From assembly GCA_040954595.2 (NCBI GenBank), contig CM082592.2:2408438-2472437 (forward strand): 64,000 nucleotides of DNA, read 5' to 3'. Shown here in pieces: positions 21,930 to 64,000 of the stretch. The translations under genes and the position numbers were made by a program. Origin of the DNA: Balanoglossus misakiensis (Eukaryota; Animalia; Hemichordata). The notes beneath the pieces were generated by a model. That model saw only the letters and a program-made list of their open reading frames with translations. It ran no database searches and had not been told where the DNA came from. Position 1 is the first letter of the stretch, and every line of letters starts with the position of its first letter.

Positions 21930-22600
21930 CCACACAAGTCTCTTTCTGCTTTCTCAATAGTCATCGTGTCAGAAGAGAAGACAACCAAACAGCAGATTGG
22001 CACCGAGCGAGCGAGCAGGAAGGGCACATCTTTGATGACCGGATCTCCAAACTGCAATATTTGTCCGACAGACACACTTCGTTTTCGTTCCATGATTTTC
22101 CTGCCACACAAGTCTCTTTCTGCTGTCATCGTGTCAGAAGAGAAGACAACCAAACAGCAGATTGGCACCGAGCGAGCGAGCAGGAAGGGCACATCTTTGA
22201 TGACCGGATCTCCAAACTTGCAACATTTGTCCGACAGACACACTTCGTTTTCGTTCAATGATTTTCCTGCCACACAAGTCTCTTTCTGCTGTCATCGTGT
22301 CAGAAGAGAAGACAACCAAACAGCAGATTGGCACCGAGCGAGCGAGCGAGCAGGAAGGGCACATCTTTGATGACCGGATCCGGATCTCCAAACTGCAATA
22401 TTTGTCCGACAGACACACTTCGTTTTCGTTCCATGATTTTCCTGCCACACAAGTCTCTTTCTGCTGTCATCGTGTCAGAAGAGAAGACAACCAAACAGCA
22501 GATTGGCACCGAGCGAGCGAGCAGGAAGGGCACATCTTTGATGACCGGATCTTCAAACTGCAATATTTGTCCGACAGACACACTTCGTTTTCGTTCTTGA
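21930..22600 (+). repeat. ~165-175-bp tandem repeat, 4 copies
   Basis: Unit contains CACACAAGTCTCTTTCTGCTGTCATCGTGTCAGAAGAGAAGACAACCAAACAGCAGATTGGCACCGAGCGAGCGAGCAGG. Confidence 0.95.
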
Positions 22601-22899
22601 TTTTCGCGATTGGTGTTTTTTTTAACTGACCCTTGAAAGTGCAATATTTAAAGTTATAACGCGAATGCCCATAAGATCAATTTTTCAGGCCTTTACTTGT
22701 TTCAACAAAGTCATGCCAGAAGAAACCAACTTTGAAGTCAAGATACCAGTAAACCAGCCCATTCTCGCCATTCTCTTTCTGTCTTCTCAACAGCCAGATC
22801 CAGAAGAAATTAAAGAGAAGGCAACCAGATTTCGCCAAGGAAGGCCCACGCAAAAGTCATGTCGGAAGAAACGAAATTTGAAGTGAAGAAACCAGCAGT

Positions 22900-24220
22900 A
22901 AACCAGTCGCCATTGTAGGAGAAATGGACAAAGAGAATCCAGCCCACGGCCCACCACCACCACCCCACTCCACCAACCTCAACATTGCATATTCTTATTT
23001 GGCATCTTGCCACATTATATTAAACAGTTTCTTTCTGCTTTCTCAACAGTTACTGTGTCAGGTGAAATCAAATTTAAGGAGGAGGCAATCAGAATCCAGT
23101 GCAATCTTCAAACCAGTCGCAGGAGAAATGGACTTTAAAGAGAAGACAAAGAGAATCCAGCCCACGGCCCACCACCACCACCCCACTCCACCAACCTCAG
23201 CATTACATATTCTTATTTGGCATCTTGCCACATTATATTAAACAGTTTCTTTCTGCTTTCTCAACAGTTACTGTGTCAGGTGAAATCAAATTTAAGGAGG
23301 AGGCAATCAGAATCCAGTGCAATCTTCAAACCAGTCGCCATTGTAGGAGAAATGGACTTTAAAGAGAAGACAAAGAGAATCCAGCCCACGGCCCACCACC
23401 ACCACCCCACTCCACCAACCTCAACATTGCATATTCTTATTTGGCATCTTGCCACATTATATTAAACAGTTTCTTTCTGCTTTCTCAACAGTTACTGTGT
23501 CAGGTGAAATCAAATTTAAGGAGGAGGCAATCAGAATCCAGTGCAATCTTCAAACCAGTCGCAGGAGAAATGGACTTTAAAGAGAAGACAAAGAGAATCC
23601 AGCCCACGGCCCACCACCACCACCCCACTCCACCAACCTCAGCATTACATATTCTTATTTGGCATCTTGCCACATTATATTAAACAGTTTCTTTCTGCTT
23701 TCTCAACAGTTACTGTGTCAGGTGAAATCAAATTTAAGGAGGAGGCAATCAGAATCCAGTGCAATCTTCAAACCAGTCGCCATTGTAGGAGAAATGGACT
23801 TTAAAGAGAAGACAAAGAGAATCCAGCCCGCGGCCCACCACCACCACCCCACTCCACCAACCTCAGCATTACATATTCTTATTTGGCATCTTGCCACATT
23901 ATATTAAACAGTTTCTTTCTGCTTTCTCAACAGTTACTGTGTCAGGTGAAATCAAATTTAAGGAGGAGGCAATCAGAATCCAGTGCAATCTTCAAACCAG
24001 TCGCCATTGTAGGAGAAATGGACTTTTAATAAAGAGAAGACAAAGAGAATCCAGCCCGCGGCCCACCACCACCACCCCACTCCACCAACCTCAGCATTAC
24101 ATATTCTTATTTGGCATCTTGCCACATTATATTAAACAGTTTCTTTCTGCTTTCTCAACAGTTACTGTGTCAGGTGAAATCAAATTTGAGGAGGCAATCA
24201 GAATCCAGTGCAATCTTCGA
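22900..24220 (+). repeat. ~220-bp tandem repeat, ~6 copies, two variants differing by 6 bp
   Basis: Recurrent CCCACCACCACCACCCCACTCCACCAACCTC and TTTCTGCTTTCTCAACAGTTACTGTGTCAGGTGAAATC. The CATTGT insertion is present in some units and absent in others. Confidence 0.95.
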
Positions 24221-24299: not shown

Positions 24300-26525
24300 C
24301 CACAGATTTATCACACAGATACCCCAGGATGAAGACCAGAAGAACCAGAACACCAAGAAGAAGACGAAGAAAAACACAGTTTTAATTTCGGTATGTGTTA
24401 TTCCATGTAATTAATGCAAAATTATTTTAAAATATACTAACCATTTTTTCCCTTTGCTTCTTTCAACAGATACCCCTGGATGAAGACCAGAAGGCCAAGG
24501 AGAAGACGAAGAAAAACCCAGCGTTAATTATGGTATGTGTTTATCCATGTATAATATGCAAAATTATTTTAATATATTCTAACCATTTTTCCCCTTTGAT
24601 TCCTTCAACAGATACCCCCGGATGAAGACCAGAAGACGAAGACCAGAAGGCCAAGGAGAAGACGAAGAAAAACCCAGCGTTAATTATGGTATGTGTTTAT
24701 CCATGTATAATATGCAAAATTATTTTAATATATTCTAACCATTTTTCCCCTTTGATTCCTTCAACAGATACCCCCGGATGAAGACCAGAAGACGAAGACC
24801 AGAAGGCCAAGGAGAAGACGAAGAAAAACCCAGCGTTAATTATGGTATGTGTTTATCCATGTATAATATGCAAAATTATTTTAAAATATTCTAACCATTT
24901 TTCCCCTTTGATTCCTTCAACAGATACCCCCGGATGAAGACCAGAAGACGAAGACCAGAAGGCCAAGGAGAAGACGAAGAAAAACCCAGCGTTAATTATG
25001 GTATGTGTTTATCCATGTATAATATGCAAAATTATTTTAATATATTCTAACCATTTTTCCCCTTTGATTCCTTCAACAGATACCCCCGGATGAAGACCAG
25101 AAGACGAAGACCAGAAGGCCAAGGAGAAGACGAAGAAAAACCCAGCGTTAATTATGGTATGTGTTTATCCATGTATAATATGCAAAATTATTTTAATATA
25201 TTCTAACCATTTTTCCCCTTTGATTCCTTCAACAGATACCCCCGGATGAAGACCAGAAGACGAAGACCAGAAGGCCAAGGAGAAGACGAAGAAAAACCCA
25301 GCGTTAATTATGGTATGTGTTTATCCATGTATAATATGCAAAATTATTTTAATATATTCTAACCATTTTTCCCCTTTGATTCCTTCAACAGATACCCCCG
25401 GATGAAGACCAGAAGACGAAGACCAGAAGGCCAAGGAGAAGACGAAGAAAAACCCAGCGTTAATTATGGTATGTGTTTATCCATGTATAATATGCAAAAT
25501 TATTTTAAAATATTCTAACCATTTTTCCCCTTTGATTCCTTCAACAGATACCCCCGGATGAAGACCAGAAGACGAAGACCAGAAGGCCAAGGAGAAGACG
25601 AAGAAAAACCCAGCGTTAATTATGGTATGTGTTTATCCATGTATAATATGCAAAATTATTTTAATATATTCTAACCATTTTTCCCCTTTGATTCCTTCAA
25701 CAGATACCCCCGGATGAAGACCAGAAGACGAAGACCAGAAGGCCATGGAGAAGACGAAGAAAAACCCAGCGTTAATTATGGTATGTGTTTATCCATGTAT
25801 AATATGCAAAATTATTTTAAAATATTCTAACCATTTTTCCCCTTTGATTCCTTCAACAGATACCCCCGGATGAAGACCAGAAGACGAAGACCAGAAGGCC
25901 AAGGAGAAGACGAAGAAAAACCCAGCGTTAATTATGGTATGTGTTTATCCATGTATAATATGCAAAATTATTTTAATATATTCTAACCATTTTTCCCCTT
26001 TGATTCCTTCAACAGATACCCCCGGATGAAGACCAGAAGACCAAGGAGAAGACGAAGACCAGAAGACCAAGGAGAAGACGAAGACCAGAAGACCAAGGAG
26101 AAGACGAAAAAAAAACAAGCGTTAATTACGGTATGTGTTAATCCATGTATTAAATGCAAAATTATTTTAAAATATTCTAACCATTTTTCCCCTTTGATTC
26201 CTTCAACAGATACCCACGGATGAAGACCAGAAGACGAAGACCAGAAGACCAAGACGAAGACCAGAAGACCAAGGAGAAGACGAAGACCAGAAGACCAAGG
26301 AGAAGCCGAAGAAAAACCCAGCGTTAATTACGGTATGTGTTAATCCATGTACTAAATGCAAAATTATTTTAAAATATTCTAACCATTTTTCCCCTTTGAT
26401 TTCTTCAACAGATACCCCAGGATGAAGACCAGAAGACGAAGACCAGAAGACCAAGACGAAGACCAGAAGACGAAGGAGACCAAGGAGAAGATGAAGAAAA
26501 ACCCAGCGTTAATTTCGGTATGTGT
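24300..26525 (+). repeat. 156-bp tandem repeat (~14 units), each an exon-like 77 nt plus an intron-like 79 nt
   Basis: Acceptor-like CAG recurs at 24611, 24767, 24923 ... (156-bp period). Unit: TTCTAAC-pyrimidine tract-CAACAG | ATACCCCCGGATGAAGACC...AATTATG | GTATGT. Confidence 0.95.
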
Positions 26526-27729
26526 TATTCCAATAATTTCTTTCATGCACTTTACTAACATTCTATTTCTATCTGTTTATCTCTACAGATCACACAAGAC
26601 CTGGACCTGGATGCGCACAGGGGCAGAGATTTGGGGGTATTGGGCCCTTCCCTGGGTAAGAACGAATTGTTTGATTTACTGTTTAAATTTCAGTTTGCAA
26701 ACTGAGTTGTGGGACTCCTTCCTTTAGATAGGGACACACGGCCTTGTAATGGGATTCTGGGGGCAGGCCCTTTTAGAGTAGGTGCCGTCATAGTGGGTAG
26801 CTTCACGTGCTGACGGTGTAATCTAAACATTGGAAAAATGTGTTTTTCCAATGTTTGGAGACTAAACCCACTTCCCCAAAAATGTAAGCTGTCCTTTGAG
26901 AACCAAGTTCAAGAACACAGTGAGATGTCTCCAGGAATGAAGTCCATGGTGTTAGAAGATCTTGCCTGGCAGTGTGTTCTGGATCATGAGATTATTGGGC
27001 ATGGCAGCTTAACCAGTGATCAGGTAAATGATTGTACAGTGTTGCATTTCCCTGTCATGATGTTATATATGCATATTTGTGACATCTTTTTAAGACAACT
27101 AGATGATGTAAATCAAAATTTAGCATTTTTAGAAGATGTCTAACTGTAGTAAGCCAAACACCAGTAAGAACTAAAATATCTCCACTGGAAAACACTGTTT
27201 GACCAGCCTTTTGATTGAAAACCAAAGGAGACGTGTTCCTGTAGCAAATGGTTTCTAGGGAGAAATTTGAAAAGCAATGACTGTTCCAGATTTTTTTTTT
27301 TTTTTTGCTGGCTTTAGTTGATTTTGTGGCTTGAATGTTTTGCAGGGTGGTGTGCAATTGGAGGAGAGAACTTGTTCAACATGAAGACCTCTGGAGAAGT
27401 TGTCTGTCCATCATGATGTTTCTGGAGCAAGACACTTGGAAAATAGGTCAGTCGTTGAAGTATCATCTAGAAAGGTAGTCGCTACCATTCAAATTAATGT
27501 CCTGATAGCCACGAAAGTTATTCTTTCAATTTTTCTAATGACCTTCTTTGAAAAAAGGAGAAAAAAATATAGGGTCCCCATGCACAATGTTCCAGAAAAT
27601 GGTACCAAAACCACCCAATTCAACAAAAATTGGGATATTTTGAAAATTAGGAGTTTTCTTCAGAAATCCAATGTTTAGAAATCAGCTATGTTAACACCTT
27701 TCCATTAATATAGTGATACGTCAAATCAA

Positions 27730-38436: not shown

Positions 38437-40001
38437 TTAGACTTTGAGATGCTCTAAATACTCCAGATTCTGTTCTGGATGATAGTACTTGCAGTTATAG
38501 TTGTCGGTATCGTTAATACGTCTGTAGGAACAATATTCAGCATTTGCCAAAAATGTGACGTTTCCCTCTGGATGCCAGCGTATAAAAATGGAGAGTTTCT
38601 CTGGGCACACCTATTGAAGAAAACAGCGAATTGTCAGTCGCTGTTTTCTTGTCCTGTATACGAGAATTAATTTTTTAATTTAATAGCAAAACAAACCACA
38701 TTCCGAAAAGTGGCGGATAATGGTTCGGGGTCGTAATTAGAGAATTGTTATCAAGCTGGTAGAACTGGAAATTGTATGCAAAACTAGTATGGCATGTACG
38801 CCCATTCTTCCTTTTTTGAAGCCAAAATCCAATTTCTGACTTTGATATGAAATCAACACCCGGAGAGAATTGGAATAATGTTAACCTGTCATTATATTGA
38901 ATATTTAGACAGATACCAAAAGAATACTTAAAGGGACAAAGTCTCTCTCTCGCTGCCCTTTACCCATGATTAATATAATTATGTTAGATACAAGGCAACG
39001 TTTATGTTATTCTACATGTGGATATATACTAGTAGTAGAGACCGTTTTGGTGAGTTTTTCACACTCGTGTCTACGAGTGGAATGGAAGCTGTGTTTAGTC
39101 GAACGTTGATTCACTGTATATATCCACATGTAGAATAACATAAACAGTGTCTTGTATTAAACATAGAAACAAACAAACGGGAAAATGGGCGAGAGAGCGA
39201 CTTTGTCCCTTTAATATTCTCTTCAAACTTACATCAAGGTCGTAGCACGTTTCGACGAGTCTGTTGTTAACGTACATGTGAAGTGTGCAATTCATGCAGC
39301 CTCTAACCAGTTCGTCATCGGATATCATGGAACCCTGCAGTGAAATGAAGCAATGGAATAACGAAGCAAATACAGAGTGAACAGAGAGGAAAAGTTAATT
39401 TAAACAGGTGATATCGCATGCACGAAGGTGTTTGTATAGTGCATCGTGGACCCGCAAGTCACCACCGGGAAATTGAATCTTCCAGTGCTAGGCTACTCGT
39501 CTGTGAAATGCCATCGATGCGATATTGACCACCTCGCCTTTCAAGTATCAGACATACAATCGCTAAAATTATATACTTGTCTAGTTACTATGCACTCGTC
39601 TTCGATTACTCCACCACACTCGTTAGGAATGCCTGGGAAAATATTATCCATAATTGTGTTTTTAAGATCTTATTTTGCTTTACCAGGCTTGTCAGTGTGT
39701 CCAACTTGTCAATCACAATGTCCACGGCTCGGAATGTATTTGTTGGTCCGATGAAACTGCCGACAACTTTCAAAAACCTGGTCGTGTGAATCGGATCCTC
39801 ATTTTCCAATATGTCGGGTAGCATCATGATCTCGTCGAAACACTCCACGCCGTGCGTTTAGACAATATCGTATACGGCGTCGTTGTAAGCCGTGATTTTG
39901 GCAGAGGAACAAACCCATGGCTGAGAACGGAATGGATGCCCGGCTTCGAGGCCACGATACACGATGACCAGAAGAGCAGATACGACAAACAGCAACCTCA
40001 T
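38437..40001 (-). pseudogene. Uncharacterised secreted Cys-rich protein, paralogue A, with in-frame stop
   Basis: Coding exons 39684-40001, 39233-39334, 38437-38610. Signal-peptide-like MRLLFVVSALLVIVYRGLEA. TAA at 39860-39858 where paralogue B has TCA (Ser). Probable 5' UTR exon donor at ~40450. Confidence 0.8.
38928..39214. mobile_element. TTAA-flanked MITE (same family as 3075-3742)
   Basis: TTAAAGGGACAAAG...CTTTGTCCCTTTAA. Confidence 0.8.
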
Positions 40002-41639: not shown

Positions 41640-43157
41640 TTAATGGAAAAGGGGTAGTGAGAGGGAAACTTTGTCCTTTAACATCGGCACAATCAATTGC
41701 ACGCGGTGCAGTCTGTAACTCCAAATCGTGTTCAGGGTGATAGAACTTGCAGTAGTAACTGTAGGTGTCTTCAGAACCTCTGTATAGGCACAGTACTCAA
41801 CGTTGACAGAAAAGGTGACATTTCCTGGTGGATTCCAGTAGAGTGCCTGGGAGAGTTTCTCGGGACATATCTAAATATTAAAATATAATAATAAAAAGAT
41901 TCAATTTTCACCATTATGATTTTTTTCACAAATGTCCTGTTGCGTGGGAAATACAAGACTCCCTAAAAGATTGCAGAATTCCAAAGTCAGAGGGTAGTGT
42001 TCCAGGCAAACATATTACACAGAATGAAAATACCGAGAGAATTATCAAAAGTTACGGACAGTGGATCTTTGATTAAACTTACGTCCATGTCTTTGCACGT
42101 TTCAGCGAGTCTTTCCTCGGTATAGACGTTAACTGTACACTCTAAACACTCTATGACAGATTCGTCGTCAGATATCCTGGTTCCCTGTGGGAAAAAGAAG
42201 CAACGTATTGTTCTCAATACAGGAGGGACTGTGATCGACGTGTGAAACTCAGAGTTGCAACTAAGCTACCCGTTCGCTTAAAAGGACAAAGTCTCTCTCC
42301 TTGCTGCCCCCTTTTCCATTATTATGTTTGATACAAGACACTGTTTATGTTAATGTACATGTACATGTGGATATATAGTGAATCAATGATCAACCACACA
42401 AAACTTCCATCCCACTTGTATGATATGAGAGTAAAAACTCGCCCAAAATGAATAAATGGTAAAGAACGATTATTCATTTTGGCGATTTTTTCACTCTCCT
42501 GTCTATAAGAAGGATGGAAGTTGTGTGTGGTTGAACGCTCATTCACTATATATCCACATGTAGAATAACAAACGGTGTCTTGTATCAAATATAATTAATG
42601 GAAAAAGGGCAGCGAGAGACAGACTTTGTCCCTTTAAAGTGAAAGGGTCGTCGCGCCGCGCTTGTTTTTAAACATTACAATTCATCCACAAATCCCTCAA
42701 GTAATAACATTCTTAGATCCTAGTAGGTCGTGGCGACTGCAGTGAGGTTTGTGCGAGTATTTGAGGACATATTCTCGACAAGGGGGACACCCACGCGGCG
42801 CGACGACCCCTTCCCTTTAAAATTGTATATATTTACCATGTTTATCGCGGCTGTGTCCAACTTGTCACTCACAACGTTCACGCTTCTGTATGTATTTGTT
42901 GGTCCGATATAACTACCAACAACTTTCACGAACTTGGCAGTTAAAATCGGCGTCTCTTTCTCCAGTGCGTCCGGTAACACCATTATCTCTTCGATACACT
43001 CAACGCCGTGAGTTGATATAATATCAAATATGGTATTGTCGTATCCCTTGATTTTGGACGCCGTACAAACCCATGGCTTTGAACGAAACGGGAGGTTGGC
43101 TTCGAAACTACTGTACACGACGCCCAGAAGCGTCGATACGACCAGCAACAACTTCAT
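41640..43157 (-). pseudogene. Uncharacterised secreted Cys-rich protein, paralogue B, frameshift in last exon
   Basis: Coding exons 42837-43157, 42083-42184, and 41870 downwards, with the same intron positions and phases as paralogue A. MKLLLVVSTLLGVVYSSFEA signal peptide. After EYCAYTEV (~41773) the homologous EDTYSYYCKFYHPEHDLE is in another frame, and the shifted frame stops at 41640 inside a MITE. Probable 5' UTR exon donor at ~43558. Confidence 0.75.
42278..42820. mobile_element. Two abutting TTAA-flanked MITEs sharing one TTAA
   Basis: 42278-42637 (GGACAAAG family) followed directly by 42634-42820 (TTAAAGTGAAAGGGTCGTCGCGCCGCG...CGCGGCGCGACGACCCCTTCCCTTTAA). Confidence 0.75.
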
Positions 43158-43867
43158 GGCGTGTTGACCTGTAAAAATTAGAAAATATGTGATGCCTCTA
43201 TTCAAGAAATGCGTGCATGAAAAAAACACACATCCATTTCAAGCCTTGATCACGCACGTATATATACGCACTGATCAAAACACGATCGTATGATAGTTCA
43301 ATTATATTTAAATATCGTTAATTAATTATTTGTTTGTTTCATTTTCATCTTTGATTTTTTATATAATTTTATGACAGAAGGGCCACAGCAAACCACAAAC
43401 TCGGCGAGTGTTGACAAGTAATTTCAGTATTTCTTCCGCAGCAGAAACGCATGCCCCTGAACATTACCACATGGAAAATAAAAAAACATGCAATTTGTCG
43501 GTTAGCGGTGATTTTCAGACAAATACCAGAAAATAAATAAACAAACGCATCCACTTACCCACTCGTCGTTGGCTTTTAAATATTGGACCGACAGTTATCT
43601 GCACGCACAGATGAATGTAGCCTATATTTCTTTAAAAATTACAAAACAAAACGCGAACACTATCGATTTTGCAAACAAGATCCAATCACCAATCAGAGTT
43701 ATTTCAGCTTGTTCCATCAAAATAGAACAAATTGCGAAAATAGCATGACGAGCTTCGGAATACAGAATACCTTTTCGAATTATTCGAGTCCCGTGTACGA
43801 CTAGTGAAATGTATAGCCATAAACTGAGGCAATTATGATGGCAGTTTCAAATGTCACACTTTACCAA

Positions 43868-43933
43868 TCTCTCTCTCTCTCTGTCTCTGTCTCTCTCTCT
43901 CTCTCTCTCTGACTCTCTTTCTCTCTCTCTGTC

Positions 43934-43988
<55 letters not shown>

Positions 43989-44047
43989 GTCTCTCTGTGT
44001 GTGTCTCTCTCTCTCTGTCTCTCTCTGTCTCTGACTCTCTTTCTCTC
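43868..44047 (+). repeat. (CT)n-rich microsatellite
   Basis: Imperfect CT/CTGT run; source of the SLSLSL and ERERER ORFs. Confidence 0.97.
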
Positions 44048-45889: not shown

Positions 45890-47635
45890 TTAAGCCCACA
45901 TCATGGGATCCGGTGGGAAAGCTGCAAGGAGAGGGAAAGATGTCAGTATATAATTATGTTTCTTCAAACACCGCAGCCAAACAACCAATCATCCCACCAA
46001 ATAACCAGCCAACTAAGTATTAAGAGAGCCACATGTTTAACATATTAATTAGATTTGCAAACAGACTGAAGAAGTTGTACCCACCCTTCCCCAAGTCTCT
46101 CGATGCAAATTCCTCTTCGAATGCTTTCTCCGATTTTTCTTTCAGTAGGTTTTCATATTTTTTCCTTTCCTCGTCGTTTCCCAGTAGCATGTATAGTCGA
46201 ATAAGAAAATAGACTCCTGAAATTGAATGACATAATGGCAGACTATGAGAAGTTACATTTGTAGATACTGAAAAATAATTGGCCGCCTCATTTTATACTA
46301 GTCTTTTAACTGAAGATTATGTATGAACACAATCTGAAACACCAATATCTCGTCCCCGAAAGGAAAAAAAAAACGAACAAAACTAAAGTAGAATTTAGAC
46401 GGATATTAGTAAATCTGCAGAACGGATGAATTAGCTGTAATGTATAGCCAGTTTTACAGTCAAGGGATACTTTTTATGAACAACTGAAATCGCGACTAAA
46501 TTCATCAATAGCAGTTGAAACAATCAACAAAATATTTCGAAAAGACAAAACTTACAAATAACTTTAATCAATGTTTGTTTTAAGCATTCGTTTTTTTTTC
46601 ATTCAAATGTTACTGGTCAGCTTTGCAAGTCATGACTAAGACGTGCCGCAGTCAGTCAGTGCTGATCAACCTATAACGCTATACATGATTTCAAAGGTGA
46701 TTGTCAGTGAAACAAATTGAAGTACCTATCTGCCAGCTGTCGAATTGCTCATAGTGGGACAGAACGCACTCTTTGATCTTCAGTGCCTTTGTCAAGAGGC
46801 CTTCAGCTTCTTCGTATTTACTGACATCCTCGTTCGCGAGATAAAACACAGCAAGGTCAGTCATTCCTTTAAACAAAGAAAACCATTTACGTCATTTTGG
46901 AATAATATGTACAACAACTGAAGTATCACACTTGGCAATATTCCAAACAAAGGTGACCTGTTACAAAACTATTTATTGAGCCAATGTCCAACTCTGATGA
47001 ACAGCAATCTATTTCGTATGGTATAAATACGTTTTCCGTCGTCATTAATATTTCACCAAACGAATTTTATGTTTCTGATCAAACCCTGTAATAACAAACC
47101 CTGATCAAACCCTGTAAACAGTAATATTCAGTTTAAAGTTCACATGTACTCACCAATCGCAATGCTTATATGGTTGCCATTATCTTTGGATCCCCAAACC
47201 TTCTTCTTCATTTCCAGGGACTCCCGAAACAGTGTCTCTATTTTGCCTGTGTCAACTGGCTCCTTTCGGCGGAGAAAAACTGCATATTCATGCATGGCTG
47301 AAAGAGCAATCAAGAGAGTGCAATGATCGCAGTTCGCTCAAAACGGTGATTATGATATACACAAATGTACAGATGCCACGATGGTTTGTATACAGAGAGC
47401 TGTAATGGTAGTTCTTTGCCCGTTAATGTGCAGTTATAAAATAACAAGAATATATTATACTTGCATATACCTATGGCCGTCCATTTTCCTGGCTCATTCT
47501 TGTAGTGTTTCTGACAAATTTTGATTGCCGTCTGGAATTTGCCTTCAATTTCATTCACAGTGCTTTCGTCAGGAATGGGCTTGTTGTAGTCCCTCGCGTA
47601 TCCTCCTTCGAGGGCCATCGCTTGTATATTGTACA
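45890..47635 (-). CDS. TPR-repeat protein (kinesin light chain/NPHP3-type TPRs), 3' exons only
   Basis: Phase-1 symmetric exons 47471-47635, 47154-47297, 46726-46866, 46085-46216 and a terminal exon 45890-45921 (last junction less certain). Peptides AMHEYAVFLRRKEPVDTGKIETLFRESLEMKKKVWG...HISIAIGMTDLAVFYLANEDVSKYEEAEGLLTKALKIKE fit the TPR_12-like consensus. Confidence 0.75.
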
Positions 47636-48117
47636 CTGTGGTTCATAAAAATGTCAACCCTCAAGATACATTGGGTTTAGGTTAATGATTGGTGGGATTT
47701 TGTTTTATCAAACTTGTGGTAAAAGTTTATAAACAATATGAAAAAAAACAACATTCTAATGTGTTGGGAAACAAGGTACTGATATCCGCTTTTGTATGTG
47801 CGCACATTTTAAACGAAATAGTAACGATTAATAGAATCTCACACTACAAAGGACCTGGGATCATATTTCTTACACGAGTTGGGGATTTTCTGTCCCACAC
47901 GAGCCGTAGGCAAGTGTGGGACAAAATTCAGTGAGAGTGTGGGATCGATTTGTTCTCACACTCTGATCCCACACTCCCAGCGTGCCAGGAGTGTGAGAGG
48001 AAGACTGTGACATCCAAAGGCGGTGTTAAATTACAGCATTTAGGCACTTTACATACATCTGCTTCTAACACTACCAATTATCCGAATGGCATGACACTAT
48101 ACTCACACTTTGCCATG

Positions 48118-50776: not shown

Positions 50777-52739
50777 TTATCGGTCTCTGCCATCCCTATT
50801 CAATAGTGTCACGGTTTCCAAATTTCTCTTGGAATTATTGAGAATACAGTTGGACCTGAAATAAAACAAGAATAGCATTAGGAACAGTAAGCTGATAAGA
50901 GCCTTCGGAAATCATGATAATATGAACATTCTCATATGATTGATACTCACGATTTCATGGTTTCCAGATCTTGTATCGTTTCTGGTAATTTTTTCTTAAA
51001 CGTTTCTGGCAGAAGTAATACGAGAAGACCCGATGTGATGGCTATGCTGCCGACAACGATGTACGTGCAAATGTAACATCTATATTTTAATAATATGATA
51101 TACGGTGCAACTATGCCAGAGAATCCGTGCCAAAGATTGATCAGTCCCATCCCAGTATTTCTGAAACGAAATGTGACTTCGCTGAGGTAAGAATGCAGAT
51201 GTATTTGTCGCAGTTGCTGGCAGTTAGTAAACATTGGAATGAATCATGTTTAAAGAAACGCTTGATGTCAAAATTTGTATGAAGATGAAGTTCAGTGACG
51301 TCTGATGTTGATGTTAACTCTTAGACTTCAAACCTCGCCCAACATAGCATGTAAAAAATAATAGTTTTTCTACTATACGTTTCGCTTCAAGTCATTGCAC
51401 ATGGGAAAAGGATAACTACGTAAAATCCCGGTGTAAAATACTTTACCGCATGAAACTATCAACACTTTTCCTCGAAGATATATATCGAAGATTGACAGCT
51501 TATTTTCGCAATAACCCTTTTATGTTAGCATTCATACCTATACAAATTACAAATCACAAAGGGTCTGTGTTCCAAACAGATTTGTGACATTCGTCATGAT
51601 AGTTTTGTATCTCATTTCACGTTCAGTCAATAACAGAACGGAGATGCGGTTTGCATTTGTCAAATATAAGTCATTTTGATTAACATTCAGTTAAAGTAGT
51701 TTTGGTTACGGATAGATACTAACATCATCGATGATTTTAGACACGAGTGAAATCACCACAGGTAACTTTTATTGAACCTTACAACATGTACTTATTTCTG
51801 CTTCAAGAAAACAACAACAGGATATGGGACATGTACCTTAAGGGAGTGGGAAGCACCTCATTGGCTGTGACAACAGCCATAACACCTGCAGCAGATGAGC
51901 CAAATTTTGCCAGTACCAGAAGCAACAACTTCAACCATTCAGTGTCTGCAGAAAATTGTATTAAATCATCAAGTGGAAGAAACGAGGCTTTTAATTTGAT
52001 TTAGTTAAGTTCTCCACATCATTTGTATCTAATAGTAATAACTGCCTACTGGTAGTTTGTTGTTTCAGGCTTCCAAGCAGTGAGTGGGCTGTGACTCGAC
52101 CAGTATGTTTTCCTGGGTTGGTTCAATCAGCCATTCGAATCAGCGACATTGTACATGTAGTTAATACCCGGCCGGACTGTAACCCAACAGCTTAACCCGT
52201 ACTATATGCTTCCGTTCGTGTAAAATTGTGGAGGGGTTAACATTTCTGGTAGCGGAAACAAGCTGTCACCTCTAAATCTCCCAAGATTTTCGAACTTATA
52301 CGTAATTTGTCATGAATATGTGCATCATTATCAATGCCGACTTCTCAGGAGTCAGATCCCCTTGTGATGTGATATATCTTGCCACAGCTCACACATGCGC
52401 ACAAATGTTTGATGTCGAATCATTCCCAGGTGTGTTTTGGCAGAACCAAGAACAGAGAACACAAATAAGAAAATCCCAATTTGGTCGAAATCAATATCAT
52501 AACGTAATGTTTTTAAATAATACCTACCAGTAATAAAACCCGAAGTTATCCATGAAACACCGGAGATAACCATAGCGATTGAAAGTTGCCATCGACGAGA
52601 AAAGAAATGGAGTGTAAACAAAACGAAGATTATGGCGGGCAAGTCAGCCAATGTTATCAGGAAGTAGAGCAGATATGGATTCTCTGAAAAGTAATCCGCA
52701 TTCAACGCCAGACCATAATACATCAGTAAGTCGGCAAAC
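50777..52739 (-). CDS. SLC22 / organic cation transporter-like (MFS), last four exons
   Basis: Exons 52528-52739, 51837-51945, 50951-51160, 50777-50855 in phase. Motifs YYGLALNA, NPYLLY, SRRW, AKFGSSAA, TANEVLPTPLRNTGMG, APYI and LLLPETFKKKLPETIQD are typical of the SLC22 C-terminal half. Upstream exons not found in the window. Confidence 0.9.
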
Positions 52740-53761
52740 CTGTGGGCCAATGAAAATTAAGATACAAGTATGGCGGATGAATATCATGTTGTGCAACAAA
52801 AGTAGCCAAAGAAGTGATAGACGGCCAGTTATAGAAAACGACAAGACACAATTCTCCCCCCCCCCCCCTTCACACACACACACCTTTATACACACTTTCA
52901 TGGCGTCCCTTGATCCGCTATTGGTGCATTTTACACTCTGTTCAATGATTCCCTTCAGTGTTATAACTAAAAAGAGTTTCTCTGTGTTAACTCCTGAACT
53001 GTATTATGACATTCACGCCTGATAAGGTGTACTAAGCGACTACAATCCGCATAGAACAAATAGCAATAAAGCACACCATAGTCATCAAAGTGTAAACTTT
53101 TGCCTCTGTCTTATGATAATTTTGTTGTCAATTGCTGAGCTTCCAAAAACGTTGCATGCAGCAATGCACGGTCACATTGGAAAAATGATACAGATTTCAT
53201 GCAAATACCACCAATTTCGCAGTTTACTACTGTGAGTTGTTTTTACCTAAAGTAAAAATTTTGACCCAGTCAAATTATTGTTTGCATTATTTTCATCATT
53301 TACTTTTCAAACCAAGATTGCCCCCCATTTAAACAACGTTACTAGTGGGCCATACACAAATGTATCATTAAACTCTGAGTGTTGCCTGTTCGTTTAAATG
53401 CGGTATCGACTAGTATCGACTATGAAAAGGCACATTAAATTCAACCGAAAACAAAATCTGCAACGATCTTTGGATTTCTTACCCGTTGTAACATAAGTTG
53501 ATGACCCATGCACGGAGTCCAGGTGTTTGGAATATGTCAACCAGTGGCCGGTTCTGTTTACCCCGTTCCTGTAAAGCGGTAACAAGATTTCCGTGTGATC
53601 AAAACGACTTCAATTTTGTTTTATACATGTATCTGGATTTTACATTATCACATGTATACATGTAGTTGCTGTATACAAATGCTAATTTTATTCATGGTAA
53701 TTATGTCAACCCAAGATCAGGCTCAAGGTTGAGCGACTGCGGTCAGAGAAAATTGAGTTAA

Positions 53762-57005: not shown

Positions 57006-57270
57006 ATGTTACACCACAGTTGTCTGTGGTTACACTTGTACGTTACTAGAATAACTGCTAAATTGACATGTTGAGGGCGCTATATACAATGGACGGAACA
57101 TTCCAAGCTGTTTGCACAGGTGACGCTGCATGTGTTGCAGTTGCACATGATTTTCAGCTTCATGTTGATCTCTCCAATACATGCAATACACTGCTTCAAA
57201 ACCATGGTCTCTTTGCAACAATGTTATTTGATTGACAATGTCTATAATTGATGGAATGTCTAGAGATGTA

Positions 57271-57438
57271 CAGTGAAACCTGTCATTACGGACACCTCTC
57301 TAATAATTAGGACAGATTTTTCAAGACAAAAATCACTGCAGTGTTTGAATAGAATATTACCTGTCTATCAGGGAAACCTCGATTTTTGAGGACAGATTTT
57401 CTGGTCCCAGGGGCGTCCTCAATAGACAGGTTTCACTG
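57271..57438. mobile_element. Tc1/mariner (pogo-like) MITE
   Basis: TA-CAGTGAAACCTGTC ... GACAGGTTTCACTG-TA. Confidence 0.85.
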
Positions 57439-58017
57439 TACATGACTTTAATTTGTTTATGATTCTAATGATTCTTTGAACGCATGTTTCGTTTTCTACA
57501 TGTACTTCAATCCTGTTGTTCTGCATTGTTGACATATAGTCTGGTTTACTAAATAAACTAGGCAGTTAAACCGGACAGCAGTATTTTGAACAATTATCAC
57601 TGTTTGTTTTCATGATTGGAATTTTTTATGGTTATTCCTAGTAAAATATTCCCTATGTTGCTTGTAACCACAAGTAACCTCTCAACTCGCCATCTACTAA
57701 ATGTGTAGCCAGGTTGATAATTTATTTATTTATCACTTGATATTTATTTATTTATCACTGCTGGCTCCTTCATTGTGACCCAGTTTTGTATCACGTGCTA
57801 CATAATATCAAAGTCCAACCTTCTCTGCTGGCTTGAAGCCTGCTTCGTCGCGCACCGCTTCACCACATCACTCCTACTGGCATATGTGGATCTGGTTATG
57901 AAGTCCTGTATCTGACTGAGTAAGCTAAGTTTACCATTATCATGAAATCCCATTTGGGGCCCAATTCACTGTTTGGTTGGATTCAACTCAGCTCGTGTAC
58001 AGGTCTGTGTGTACCTA

Positions 58018-58113
58018 TAGCCTGGTCCCATACCAGTGTGTTTTAGATATATAGAAATTCACACACTGTGTGTAAGTCTATATCTAAAACACACTGGGTA
58101 TGGTGACCAGGCT
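58018..58113. mobile_element. Short palindromic MITE
   Basis: TAGCCTGGTC...CCAGTGTGTTTTAGATATA / TATATCTAAAACACACTGG...GACCAGGCTA. Related 45-bp tandem duplicate at about 58212-58300. Confidence 0.6.
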
Positions 58114-60457
58114 ACGTCAGAGTCAAAACCATGTGGTGGCCTCGTTGCCATGACATCTCATTTTGAATTCTATTGACTTGCAGATCTAAAAAATGGAAGA
58201 TAGTTGACTCTGTGGCCAGACGGCCCTTGTGTGTGAGTCTATCTAAACACACTGGTGGCCAGACGGCCCTTGTGTGTGAGTCTATCTAAACACACTGGGT
58301 GTAACCAACTAGGCTATAAAAATATGCACAGAATTACACTTCAGTTTTTGTAGCCCAGAATTTTCAGTTCAATTCAGTTCAGTTCATGTCATGTAGTTAG
58401 TCCAAACAAATGAACAGAATGTTGTTGTCTTTTTGGGGGTCCAGATTGAAAAGGAAATGGCTAAATAAACACCGTCAAGTTGACTTTTACTGTCCTGCGC
58501 ATGCACGGCTCGACGTTGGGTGAGTACGATTCCCGGTGATGGGACCCTTGACCTTAGTGAGGGGGTCAGTACTGTGGACTGACTGACCTACCTGCAGAGT
58601 CTGACCTGACAATACGGTGTTGGTCAGACTTCTTTAGGTAGGTTAAAATTATATATGCTAGCTGGACTCTGTGTGGAGAATGAACGTATCTGTCAAGGAA
58701 CTCCTAAATCCATAGCTACATGTATAGCATTTCACAGAAATGTTCACACCACTTTTTCAATACACTACAATGCGCGTGTAAAATTTTACAGGAAGTGTGT
58801 CACCGTGGCATTTCGGGTTCAGTTTTCAGATCTCATATTGGAGATCTCATATTTTTGCGCATCGTGCAAATGTGGTCTAATAAAAGAAAAGATGCCCTGC
58901 ATGAAAAGCGACATACATATTCAATTATATTACCATGGCCTGTGAGTCACATTTTAATTGGTCGAGATGAACGACGTCACTGACCACAAATACTCAGTAG
59001 TGGTTTGTTTACATGCCCGTAAATCTGAATAGTAATATAAGCATACATTTCAGTGAATACAACATTTTGCGTAACACAAGTTCCGGGGCCCCTAGTCTTT
59101 TGCGTAGAACATTTTCGTAAATTTTGATGGTTTTCTTGAGTTCGTTGGCAATATAATGGAAATAACCGACTCCGCCCCGACCATTAACGTTTGATTATGG
59201 GCGCAGGCTCGAAGACAGCCAAAAATTCATGGGCTTGGAAGCCTCGCCCATGAATTTTTGGCTTTCCTCTCGCCCTTGCCCATAAACAAACGTTAATGGT
59301 CTATAAAGCATGTCATTACAAATGTATTACGATTGAATTCTTATTGTTTTAGCGTTTTAGCGTTTTAGCAAAGGTTACCATGGCATCAAAACTCCCAGAT
59401 GAGAAGAAAATTAGTGGAGGAAGAACAAGAGGTAGACACATAATTTTCTATGGTATATTATGCGAAAACAATGGGAAATCAAAAACACACTTAAATTGCA
59501 ACTTACTCCGATACGAGAAAATCAACTACACGGTCCATTATTATCCCAACTGGCGTGTTTTTTTTAATGTGTGTTACAAGCCCAGCGGAAAAAAACACGC
59601 TAGTCCGGAATCCAGACTAATTAATATGATGTCAGAGTGCTCTTCTATTTATCTAAAGTATTTAAAATCGGAAATTCATATTCATATCAGAGCTAAACGA
59701 CTTTGAATTTAATTTTATTAAGCAAAAACACAGATTTTACAATCAACACAGGAAATTTCCCGGTGCTTTTGAACAACCTTCAGATGCAACAGTAACCCAC
59801 ATTTTGACTAAAAAAGACATGTCCAAGAATTGGTAATCTGTTGGAATATATACATGGGCTGATGTTTTGGAATTTGACCACGCATCTCGTTAAAATATAG
59901 ACTGAGTCCCCCCCCCCATCCTGGGGATGGGGGACTGTCTGTCTGTCTACCAGTGTCATCGATCGATCTAAAGAACAGCTTATATCATATATTTTTTAAA
60001 ACGTGGACAAGTATTGATTGGGGATGGCCTGACCTGATTGTATTTTTGTGGGCGTGGTTTGCATATAAATGAACTTTTCTAGACTATTCCTTTTAAATAA
60101 TAATTATGTACGTAGAGAAACATGACAGTGTTAACAAATACAGAGTTAAACTGCACCTACTTTGATGAAACCTGAAATGAATTTAAACATCACAAGGATA
60201 GGATGGCACATGATGCTAGTCATGCCGACTAATTACTAATTTGCATATGAATGAATTAAAAAAAAATTAAAACTATATTTGCGAAACAACAGCACATTAC
60301 TGCACCAATGTGATAAACTTACCAGAAATATGATTCACATTTAATTTGGAATGAAATAAGTAACAGATCTATAGATAATTTTATAGTTTATAGATAATAA
60401 AACTGATATTCAACTAAACAGTCATCTGAAAGTATTCTCCCTCTATCTCTCTGTCTC

Positions 60458-60494
<37 letters not shown>

Positions 60495-60769
60495 TAACTT
60501 TTCAAGAGGTGAGTGTATACGCCAATTTCATTTGAAATTTACAGTATTACAGTAGATATTCCTGAATAGTCGGAATGTGGATGTGATGAAGTTCAGCCCA
60601 AAGTTCAATGAGTTCACTTATACATACACATTTTAATAGATTAGTATTTGGGTTTTAAAAAAGATACACAAGGAAATCTCGAAACTCATTGCAAACACTG
60701 ACAGCTTCCATATCCCTTTTGATGTCTCGCCAGGGTATTATTTTCACACATATTCATTCTCTCTCTCTC

Positions 60770-60946
60770 TCTCTCCTTTCAAATTTACATTGACTATTAG
60801 TAAAAAATTAGAATCTGCAAATTACAGGAAACTTCCTCCCATGCCTGAAGGAATTTAAAAAATAAATGTCTCTATCTTCCTCCTTTTCTTTCTTCTTCTC
60901 TGTCTCTGTCTCTCTGTCTGTCTGTCTCTCTCTCTCACTATCTCTG

Positions 60947-60985
<39 letters not shown>

Positions 60986-61193
60986 ATCCCTCTTTCATAT
61001 CCAGGAGGTATGTATATACCCTACTATTATCATTTTAGTCGAGGAATTAGTTGTTGATTTCCTTTCAAATTTACTCTAGCTATTATTAAAATTTAGAATC
61101 TGCGAATTACCGGAAATTTCCTCCCATGCCTGAAGGAATTTAAAAAATAAATGTTTCTCTCTTCCTCCTTTTCTTTCTTCTTCTCTCCCTCAT

Positions 61194-61242
<49 letters not shown>

Positions 61243-61485
61243 GTCTCTATCTCTCTCTCTCTGTCTATCCCTCTTTCATATCCAGGAGGTATGTATATAC
61301 CCTACTTTTATCATTTTAGTCCAGGAATTAGTTGTTGATTTCCTTTCAAATTTACTCTAGCTATTACTAAAAATTAAGAATCTGCGAATTACCGTAAATT
61401 TCCTCTCATGCCTGAAGGAATTTAAAAAATAAATGTCTCTCTCCCTTATTGTCTTTCTTTCTCTCTCTCTCACTCACTATCTCTG

Positions 61486-61518
<33 letters not shown>

Positions 61519-62684
61519 TTCATATCCAGCTGGTGAGTCTATAAATGTACCCAACTTTTATCATTTTAGTCGAGGAATTAGTTGTTGATTTCCTTTAAAA
61601 TTTACATTAGCAATTACTAAAAATTTAGATTCTGCGAATTACCGGATATTTCGTCCCATGCCTGAAGGAATTTAAAAAATAAATGTCTCTCTCTTCCTCA
61701 TTTTCCCTCTTCTTCTCGCTCTCTCTCGCTCTCTCTCTCTCTCATCTATACAGCGTGTAAGTATAATATACCGTACTTTTATCATTTTAGTCGAGGAATT
61801 AATTGTTGATTTCCTTTATAATTAACATTTAGCTATTACTAAAAATGTAGATTTTGCGAATTACCGGATATTTCCTCTCATGCCTAAAGGAATTTAAAAA
61901 ATAAATGTCTCTATCTTCCTCCTTTTCTTTCTTCTTCTCTTCCTCTCCCTCATTGTCTCTCTCTCTCTCTCACTATCTCTGTCTCTATCCCTCTCTCTCT
62001 GTCTATCCCTCTTTCATATCCAGGAGGTATGTATATACCCTACTTTTATCATTTTAGTCCAGGAATTAGTTGTTGATTTCCTTTCAAATTTACTCTAGCT
62101 ATTACTAAAAATTAAGAATCTGCGAATTACCGTAAATTTCCTCTCATGCCTGAAGGAATTTAAAAAATAAATGTCTCTCTCCCTTATTGTCTTTCTTTCT
62201 CTCTCTCTCACTCACTATCCCTCTCTCTCTGTCTATCCCTCTTTCATATCCAGGAGGTATGTATATACCCTACTTTTATCATTTTAGTCCAGGAATTAGT
62301 TATTGATTTCCTTTCAAATTTACTCTAGCTATTACTAAAAATTAAGAATCTGCGAATTACCGTAAATTTCCTCTCATGCCTGAAGGAATTTAAAAAATAA
62401 ATGTCTCTCTCTTCCTCCTTTTTCTTTCTTCTTCTCTGTCTCTGTCTCTCTATCTGTCTCCCTCTCTCTGATATCCAGCTGGTGAGTCTATACATGTACC
62501 ATACTTTTATCATTTTAGTCCAGGAATTAGTTATTGATTTCCTTTCAAATTTACTCTAGCTATTACTAAAAATTAAGAATCTGCGAATTACCGTAAATTT
62601 CCTCTCATGCCTGAAGGAATTTAAAAAATAAATGTCTCTCTCCCTTATTGTCTTTCTTTCTCTCTCTCTCACTCACTATCTCTG

Positions 62685-62742
<58 letters not shown>

Positions 62743-63176
62743 ATATCCAGCTGGTGAGTCTATAAATGTACCCAACTTTTATCATTTTAGTCGAGGAATT
62801 AGTTGTTGATTTCCTTTAAAATTTACATTAGCAATTACTAAAAATTTAGATTCTGCGAATTACCGGATATTTCGTCCCATGCCTGAAGGAATTTAAAAAA
62901 TAAATGTCTCTCTCTTCCTCATTTTCCCTCTTCTTCTCGCTCTCTCTCGCTCTCTCTCTCTCTCATCTATACAGCGTGTAAGTATAATATACCGTACTTT
63001 TATCATTTTAGTCGAGGAATTAATTGTTGATTTCCTTTATAATTAACATTTAGCTATTACTAAAAATGTAGATTCTGCGAATTACCGGATATTTCCTCTC
63101 ATGCCTAAAGGAATTTAAAAAATAAATGTCTCTATCTTCCTCCTTTTCTTTCTTCTTCTCTTCCTCTCCCTCATTG

Positions 63177-63209
<33 letters not shown>

Positions 63210-63452
63210 GTCTCTATCCCTCTCTCTCTGTCTATCCCTCTTTCATATCCAGGAGGTATGTATATACCCTACTTTTATCATTTTAGTCCAGGAATTAGTT
63301 GTTGATTTCCTTTCAAATTTACTCTAGCTATTACTAAAAATTAAGAATCTGAGAATTACCGTAAATTTCCTCTCATGCCTGAAGGAATTTAAAAAATAAA
63401 TGTCTCTCTCCCTTATTGTCTTTCTTTCTCTCTCTCTCACTCACTATCTCTG

Positions 63453-63496
<44 letters not shown>

Positions 63497-63930
63497 ATAT
63501 CCAGCTGGTGAGTCTATAAATGTACCCAACTTTTATCATTTTAGTCGAGGAATTAGTTGTTGATTTCCTTTAAAATTTACATTAGCAATTACTAAAAATT
63601 TAGATTCTGCGAATTACCGGATATTTCGTCCCATGCCTGAAGGAATTTAAAAAATAAATGTCTCTCTCTTCCTCATTTTCCCTCTTCTTCTCGCTCTCTC
63701 TCGCTCTCTCTCTCTCTCATCTATACAGCGTGTAAGTATAATATACCGTACTTTTATCATTTTAGTCGAGGAATTAATTGTTGATTTCCTTTATAATTAA
63801 CATTTAGCTATTACTAAAAATGTAGATTCTGCGAATTACCGGATATTTCCTCTCATGCCTAAAGGAATTTAAAAAATAAATGTCTCTATCTTCCTCCTTT
63901 TCTTTCTTCTTCTCTTCCTCTCCCTCATTG

Positions 63931-63961
<31 letters not shown>

Positions 63962-64000
63962 GTCTCTATCCCTCTCTCCCTGTCTATCCCTCTTTCATAT
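60770..64000 (+). repeat. 220-285-bp satellite with embedded (CT)n tract and a 3-unit (~755 bp) higher-order repeat; candidate micro-exon array
   Basis: AAGGAATTTAAAAAATAAATGT recurs 13 times. Unit types cycle X-Y-Z with two hybrid units. Each unit ends its pyrimidine tract with CAG-NNN-GTRWGT. Continues past the window end. Confidence 0.95.

Follow-up and report, generated by a model that had tools for sequence, protein, structure and literature searches.

The window analysed here is a stretch of 64,000 nucleotides from the hemichordate Balanoglossus misakiensis (GenBank assembly GCA_040954595.2, contig CM082592.2, positions 2,408,438 to 2,472,437 of the forward strand). Its last part is occupied by a tandem array (60774-64000, + strand) in which sequence comparison reveals homologous introns, a higher-order repeat of three units and, in every complete unit, a candidate exon of exactly three nucleotides. 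The design is the same throughout: a long AG-free (CT)n tract leads into CAG, three nucleotides follow, and then a donor. An earlier note on this DNA had described twelve such AG-NNN-GT units on the + strand, and all 12 are found (61005-63731) with the triplets and donors it reported, GAG (n = 5) being followed by GTATGT, CTG (n = 4) by GTGAGT and CGT (n = 3) by GTAAGT. Read as codons, the candidates are Glu at 61005-61007 and 61286-61288 (candidates 1 and 2), Leu at 61530-61532 (3), Arg at 61754-61756 (4), Glu at 62024-62026 and 62254-62256 (5 and 6), Leu at 62479-62481 and 62751-62753 (7 and 8), Arg at 62975-62977 (9), and finally Glu at 63253-63255 (10), Leu at 63505-63507 (11) and Arg at 63729-63731 (12). 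The homologous introns that separate the triplets measure 221-278 nt, with a repeat unit of ~250 nt. A 13th, Glu-type unit contributes its intron core and tract (63732-64000, + strand), the window ending just before its acceptor, and at the other end of the array blastn identifies a relic unit (60757-60873, + strand) in which a short CT tract runs straight into the 3' portion of the core. A candidate branch-point motif (CTCAC or CTCAT; YTNAY), noted earlier for most units, lies at -40 to -80 from the acceptor in 11 of the 12 units, the exception being the unit at 62479. The division into three unit types also stands for the Glu, Leu and Arg types, but the unit at 62479 represents a fourth, mosaic type that combines a Leu-type exon and donor with an acceptor end of its own and a Glu-type intron core. 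The mirror image of the splice motif is absent from the - strand of 60401-64000.

Donors were scored as matches to the U1 consensus over 11 positions (G at +3 was accepted as matching). By this measure the donors are indeed strong: all four array donor types match at 9/11, a value reached by only 17 of 7149 background GT sites, and the donor at 60509, upstream of the array, likewise scores 9/11. The Arg-type donor has lost the exonic matches at -2/-1 and is perfect from +1 to +8; the Glu-type donor retains the exonic matches and carries a mismatch at +4. Taken alone, the bare 12-mer YAGNNNGTRWGT is unremarkable: of its 16 occurrences, 12 belong to the array, and the four elsewhere in the window are close to the mean of 3.2 obtained from shuffles. 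Its pairing with a pyrimidine tract, however, is beyond chance. Outside the array (+ strand 1-60400 and the whole - strand), not one of the 81 AG sites that follow a stretch of at least 75% pyrimidine has a donor of at least 8/11 within 0-6 nt. The AG-free zones before the array acceptors span 84-152 nt, 90 nt being reached by 0.9% of background AG gaps, and the pyrimidine fraction of the last 57 nt before the acceptors is 0.86-0.95; the corresponding values for neighbour-gene acceptors (n = 6, picked by eye) are 14-112 nt and 0.54-0.63. The window also holds a 180-nt (TC)n tract (43868-44047, + strand), an ordinary microsatellite that, in contrast to the array, is not followed by an acceptor, triplet and donor.

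Recursive splicing would offer one account of such sites, which would then be ratchet points that remove a long intron stepwise and leave nothing in the mRNA. In the five Glu-type units and in the unit at 60507, AG does lie directly before GT after the pyrimidine tract. In the seven Leu- and Arg-type units (7/12), however, AG is not next to the donor, and the arrangement that defines a recursive site is missing. Ratchet points serve very long introns, and placing them every 250 nt would be needless; we consider this account very improbable. Even less credence is due to the idea that the introns of a host gene each harbour a structured small RNA, i.e., a small nucleolar RNA (snoRNA) or microRNA (miRNA), with the tiny exons serving only to release it. 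The conserved intron core of ~135 nt in each unit speaks for such an arrangement, but no Rfam match at E<=1 falls in the array (all eight matches lie in two hairpins upstream) and six folds of the core gave z values of -0.41 to 0.97. An intronic snoRNA or miRNA cluster is thus largely refuted by Rfam and folding.

Upstream exons and reading frame

The earlier note had seen no large exon flanking the array. A candidate does exist upstream, at 59369-59431 (+ strand), with an ATG at 59380 in an ACCATGG context (RCCATGG occurs 15 times on the + strand) and a donor at 59432. Three tandem TTTTAG acceptors would allow this putative start-codon exon to begin at 59353, 59361 or 59369, and the 17 codons and one base that precede the donor give it a phase 1 end. 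Further upstream, the sequence suggests the end of a non-coding first exon at 58497-58519 (+ strand), with a donor at 58520 (8/11 U1 match); the candidate exon contains, at 58497, a GCGCATGCAC element which we take to be NRF1-like.

Between the start-codon exon and the array lies a (CT/GT)n pyrimidine tract (60436-60506, + strand) with a 72-nt AG-free zone and an AAG acceptor, followed by a candidate exon of just two nucleotides (AG, 60507-60508, + strand) and a GTGAGT donor matching at 9/11. These two nucleotides would supply the rest of a Glu codon and bring the frame to phase 0. With the 2-nt exon joined, each of the triplets forms a complete codon and no stop interrupts the frame before the window ends; without it, a TGA is reached at the fifth joined codon after the ATG exon. 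Stops do not arise in phase 0 from any two triplets in either order, and any subset of the triplets is in frame and free of stops. The only other exon candidate between 59440 and 61000 is a weak one of 104 nt at 59659 (pyrimidine fraction 0.67, donor 7/11). The site at ~60506 had previously been regarded as a degenerate unit of the array. The unit is present, but its descent from the array by decay is not demonstrable, the local alignment with the array unit scoring 43 where 200 shuffles gave a mean of 35.6 and a maximum of 52. Hence, we treat it as a separate instance of the array design.

The same frame arithmetic can be read to the opposite effect. If AG/GT at 60507-60510 were a zero-length (recursive) site or were skipped, a stop would follow after four codons, and the transcript would be non-coding, nonsense-decayed or dead. 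Apart from the TGA in the frame without the 2-nt exon, the weak donor of the ATG exon is consistent with such a fate, as are the frame-breaking exon-like repeats at 24300-26600 in the same genome. Against it stand (i) the first AG after the tract, an AAG that yields 2 nt and thus the exact length for phase 0, (ii) the ACCATGG context of the ATG, and (iii) the length of three kept by all twelve triplets. On balance, a non-coding or decayed transcript appears improbable to us.

Repeat history, divergence and the predicted gene

The intron cores of the Glu, Leu and Arg types differ from each other at 9-12 of 135 positions; within a type, most copies show 0-2 differences, and the first unit (61005) has 7-8 changes from the other Glu units. 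The units are arranged in a three-unit higher-order repeat of ~725-750 nt, the copies of which are 99% identical (718/724 and 492/493 aligned bases). In the mosaic unit at 62479 the intron core differs from the Glu core at 1/135 positions and from the Leu core at 12/135, which points to an exchange just after the donor. The relic at 60757-60873 matches the core with 88% blastn identity over 100 nt, and its tract (~60757-60775) joins the second half of the core directly, without AG, triplet or donor.

Comparison of the Glu, Leu and Arg types shows where the units have diverged. Across the 14-nt site seven minimal changes are required, four of which fall in the three exon columns, and AG, GT, the C at -3 and the GT at +5/+6 are invariant among the three types. 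The intron core exhibits 17 changes in 136 columns, with a maximum of three in any three adjacent columns. At the core rate, an excess of at least four changes in the triplet has a Poisson P of 6e-4 for a position named in advance. When the same changes are placed at random from the majority ancestor, retention of AG, GT and a donor of at least 9/11 in all three types has P values of 0.0025-0.03, and pairwise versions of the test yield 0.002-0.009; small indels just after the donors make the alignment there uncertain. The splice sites are thus kept where the triplet is most diverged; retention of AG and GT alone in all three types has P 0.08 under random placement.

The majority ancestor of the three types already has a donor of 10-11/11 located three bases after CAG. 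The founding unit was therefore in all likelihood a genuine 3-nt exon under any reading of the present array, and it can be asked if the copies have remained exons. One or a few ancestral 3-nt exons might have been amplified into an intronic minisatellite, in which case the gene would be real, the copies mostly skipped pseudo-sites, and the run not spliced in. Given the ancestral donor, strong sites may simply be inherited; the higher-order copies, at 99% identity, are too young for selection to show; and one unit has lost its cassette. Such a minisatellite fits less well with the fact that the types differ most in the triplet with all donors still at 9/11, and with all 12 complete units being intact. 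Moreover, silent copies do not explain how distinct codons survived under homogenisation, for which the mosaic at 62479 is an example. We thus regard amplification into mostly skipped copies as rather unlikely.

Based on the evidence collected so far, we suggest instead that the feature is probably the 5' part of a coding gene which grew by tandem duplication of intron-plus-codon units. A start-codon exon would be followed by a 2-nt exon and by at least 12 one-codon exons, split by the homologous 221-278-nt introns. The anatomy of the splice signals, their spacing, the arithmetic of the frame and the history of the repeats can be read directly from the sequence; the mechanism and the product outlined next are predictions. 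Since the exons are too small for definition across the exon, recognition would have to span the intron instead, and the introns would be removed in order, each triplet joining the growing upstream exon. The strong donor, the long AG-free UC tract and the distant branch point might then keep the two spliceosome contacts apart. The array may have grown by unequal crossing-over, first of intron-plus-codon units and then of the Glu/Leu/Arg trimer; exchange would have kept the intron cores alike and left the codons distinct. The predicted product is a cytosolic protein that carries, close to its N-terminus, a charged stretch of Glu, Leu and Arg; changes in copy number and exon skipping could both alter the length of this stretch, and neither would shift the frame or introduce a stop. 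With somewhat less confidence, the locus may even be a deuterostome gene whose 2-nt exon and at least 12 consecutive one-codon exons are all spliced in order and edited codon by codon, through skipping and through recombination between the homogenised introns, so that part of the protein would be composed, rearranged and altered in length by single residues. The idea of a gene built one codon per exon goes back to the earlier note. It has gained an ATG exon, a frame-fixing 2-nt exon, divergence centred on the triplet with kept splice sites, and the Glu/Leu/Arg trimer together with the mosaic, and it is as yet unproven.

Several points weigh against a coding gene of this kind. The donor at 59432 scores 6/11, no better than the weakest of five donors from neighbouring genes (6-9/11), an equal score is reached by three GTs further along the open stretch of the ATG exon, and the joining of this exon to the array is one we infer. 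Two of the three phases are free of stops, so that an open frame alone is weak evidence. The triplet excess drops to P ~0.1 when corrected over all windows, the retention of AG and GT alone falls short as given above, only three to four independent types are at hand, rendering the selection signal suggestive, and the most recent copies have diverged too little to reveal selection. The unit at 60757-60873 has lost the whole acceptor-triplet-donor cassette, and UGC is absent within 90 nt of the acceptors, a single UGC being located at -95 in each of the three Arg-type units. The description of the codon order as 'coiled-coil-like' is unsupported, its amphipathicity not being significant (shuffle P 0.086 and 0.18). 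No protein family was matched, and the array reaches the window end (64000) before any downstream exon. Finally, every unit of the array at 24300-26600 has splice-like ends although the frame is broken; hence, splice-like satellites in B. misakiensis need not be coding.

Homologue searches and neighbouring loci

A protein search with 59353-59472 (lengths >70 aa) returned two candidates, none at E<=10, and HMMER with 59353-59442 over 1.84 billion representatives gave two matches, both to unrelated repeat proteins matched by repetition. The blank protein searches with the ATG exon carry little weight, its uninterrupted coding sequence being no longer than 17 residues; moreover, a control with NCF4 returned one match from four candidates (82%) and no identical protein, so that the collection probably lacks the proteins of this organism. 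Exact DNA scans of metagenome contigs found 0 loci for the ATG exon and 0 for the intron core.

Among 14 open reading frames of the window searched against Pfam, only PX was above cut-off, plus one sub-threshold match. The exons of an NCF4 (p40phox)-like gene lie at 4563-5681 (- strand), and the PX-domain exon at 5517-5663 (- strand) matches NCF4 and is 82% identical to the NCF4-like protein of Ptychodera flava; this one gene points to an acorn worm or a near relative as the likely source of the DNA. The second tandem array of exon-plus-intron units, at 24300-26600 (+ strand), has a 156-nt unit and is 99% identical, each unit being bordered by an AG acceptor and a GTATGT donor; its exon-like lengths are 72, 63, nine of 77, 115, 123 and 106 nt, and the frame is not kept. 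It adjoins arrays of 165 and 224 nt at 21960-24218. Two paralogous predicted secreted proteins are encoded at 39606-39857 and 42720-43238 (- strand), without a Pfam match or homologue found. The pair shows a weak atlas likeness (0.79) to MBF2-domain clusters, which we take as a lead only, and for the protein at 42720-43160 no homologue was found, with atlas scores all <0.8. At 46020-47642 (- strand) lie the exons of a predicted protein-coding gene with no Pfam match.

Head-to-head with the predicted micro-exon gene, transporter-like exons are found at 50947-52756 (- strand); these presumably encode a transporter of the SLC22/MFS type, an assignment not confirmed by Pfam. Two long hairpins at 58017-58115 and 59173-59310 are inverted repeats and likely miniature inverted-repeat transposable elements, with Rfam miRNA matches that are sub-threshold only, and a third inverted-repeat element is located at ~57268-57441.

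Comparison with known systems

Micro-exon genes (MEGs) of the flatworms Schistosoma, Echinococcus and Hymenolepis have exons mostly of 15 nt (range 6-81; 3-81 in the abstract) and encode secreted proteins with a signal peptide (10.1101/2020.04.08.031872, PMC10526429). They are defined by at least seven exons, at least half of them <70 nt and divisible by 3, in a run of at least four consecutive ones (10.1101/2020.04.08.031872); the structure predicted here offers 12 consecutive 3-nt candidate units, with its 3' part located beyond the window. The earlier comparison with schistosome MEGs holds for the architecture, i.e., consecutive exons divisible by three, with skipping in MEGs changing one residue. 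It does not extend further, since each array exon consists of one codon, the introns all stem from a single repeat unit and a charged N-terminus is predicted: by inspection, the 17 codons after the ATG at 59380 are charged or polar with no hydrophobic run, so that the signal peptide of MEGs is absent. A sequence relation to MEG proteins was not found either, the ATG exon being without a match in the weak searches and the host not being a flatworm.

Among vertebrates, chicken BG genes likewise possess many small exons of the same size. Each gene has 13-36 of them, with a length of 21 or 24 nt that corresponds to one heptad; they encode a predicted coiled coil and undergo expansion and contraction (PMC4046983). 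The heptad exons of BG, however, belong to the cytoplasmic tail and come after signal, Ig-V and transmembrane exons, whereas the 3-nt exons predicted here would directly follow the start-codon exon. In avian fast troponin T, regulated inclusion of up to seven repeated small P exons extends a charged region at the N-terminus (PMC7581897). Each P exon encodes a His/Glu motif of several residues, unlike the array exons, and no sequence relation is shown.

As to the splice signals, fly eMIC exons are preceded by long AG-free zones and UCUC tracts (PMC8797185), vertebrate neural microexons have branch points further from the acceptor, for which relief of steric hindrance has been proposed (PMC12871342), and microexons tend to have stronger donors (10.1101/2024.09.17.613571). 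The array resembles these SRRM3/4 (eMIC)-dependent neural microexons in its long AG-free zone (72-152 nt when the unit at 60507 is included), its UCUC-rich tract (pyrimidine fraction 0.86-0.95), its distant predicted branch point (YTNAY at -40 to -80 in 11/12 units) and its strong donor, the latter being a vertebrate trait. It differs in being a tandem run, where eMIC microexons are isolated cassettes with a UGC near the acceptor. Because this UGC is missing near the array acceptors, we do not assign the array exons to the eMIC class.

That exons of 1 and 3 nt are real is documented by plant APC11 and VPS55 (PMC8831610) and by human RPS24 (10.1101/2024.12.24.630263). Such isolated 1-3-nt exons are spliced, are often missed by annotation and have GTRAGT donors (PMC8831610, 10.1101/2024.12.24.630263); in contrast to the dozen of the array, they occur singly or in groups of no more than two or three. 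Among the papers covered by the literature search, which were mostly open-access ones, neither a series of one-codon exons nor hemichordate microexons came up; MEG tables may hold 3-nt exons.

If spliced as predicted, the twelve exons would deliver 36 coding bases over ~2.7 kb, plus the preceding 2-nt exon. The locus would then offer a natural, clonable system for testing how the spliceosome copes with successive exons below the size needed for exon definition, and its nearly identical introns would serve as internal controls. A repeat that annotators would mask as satellite would be coding, and exon birth by tandem duplication would have been caught while under way in an animal closely related to chordates. 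As far as the literature found describes them, microexons are adjacent in twos or threes, MEG exons are mostly 15 nt long and BG exons 21 nt, and the predicted run of at least 12 one-codon exons would exceed them all.
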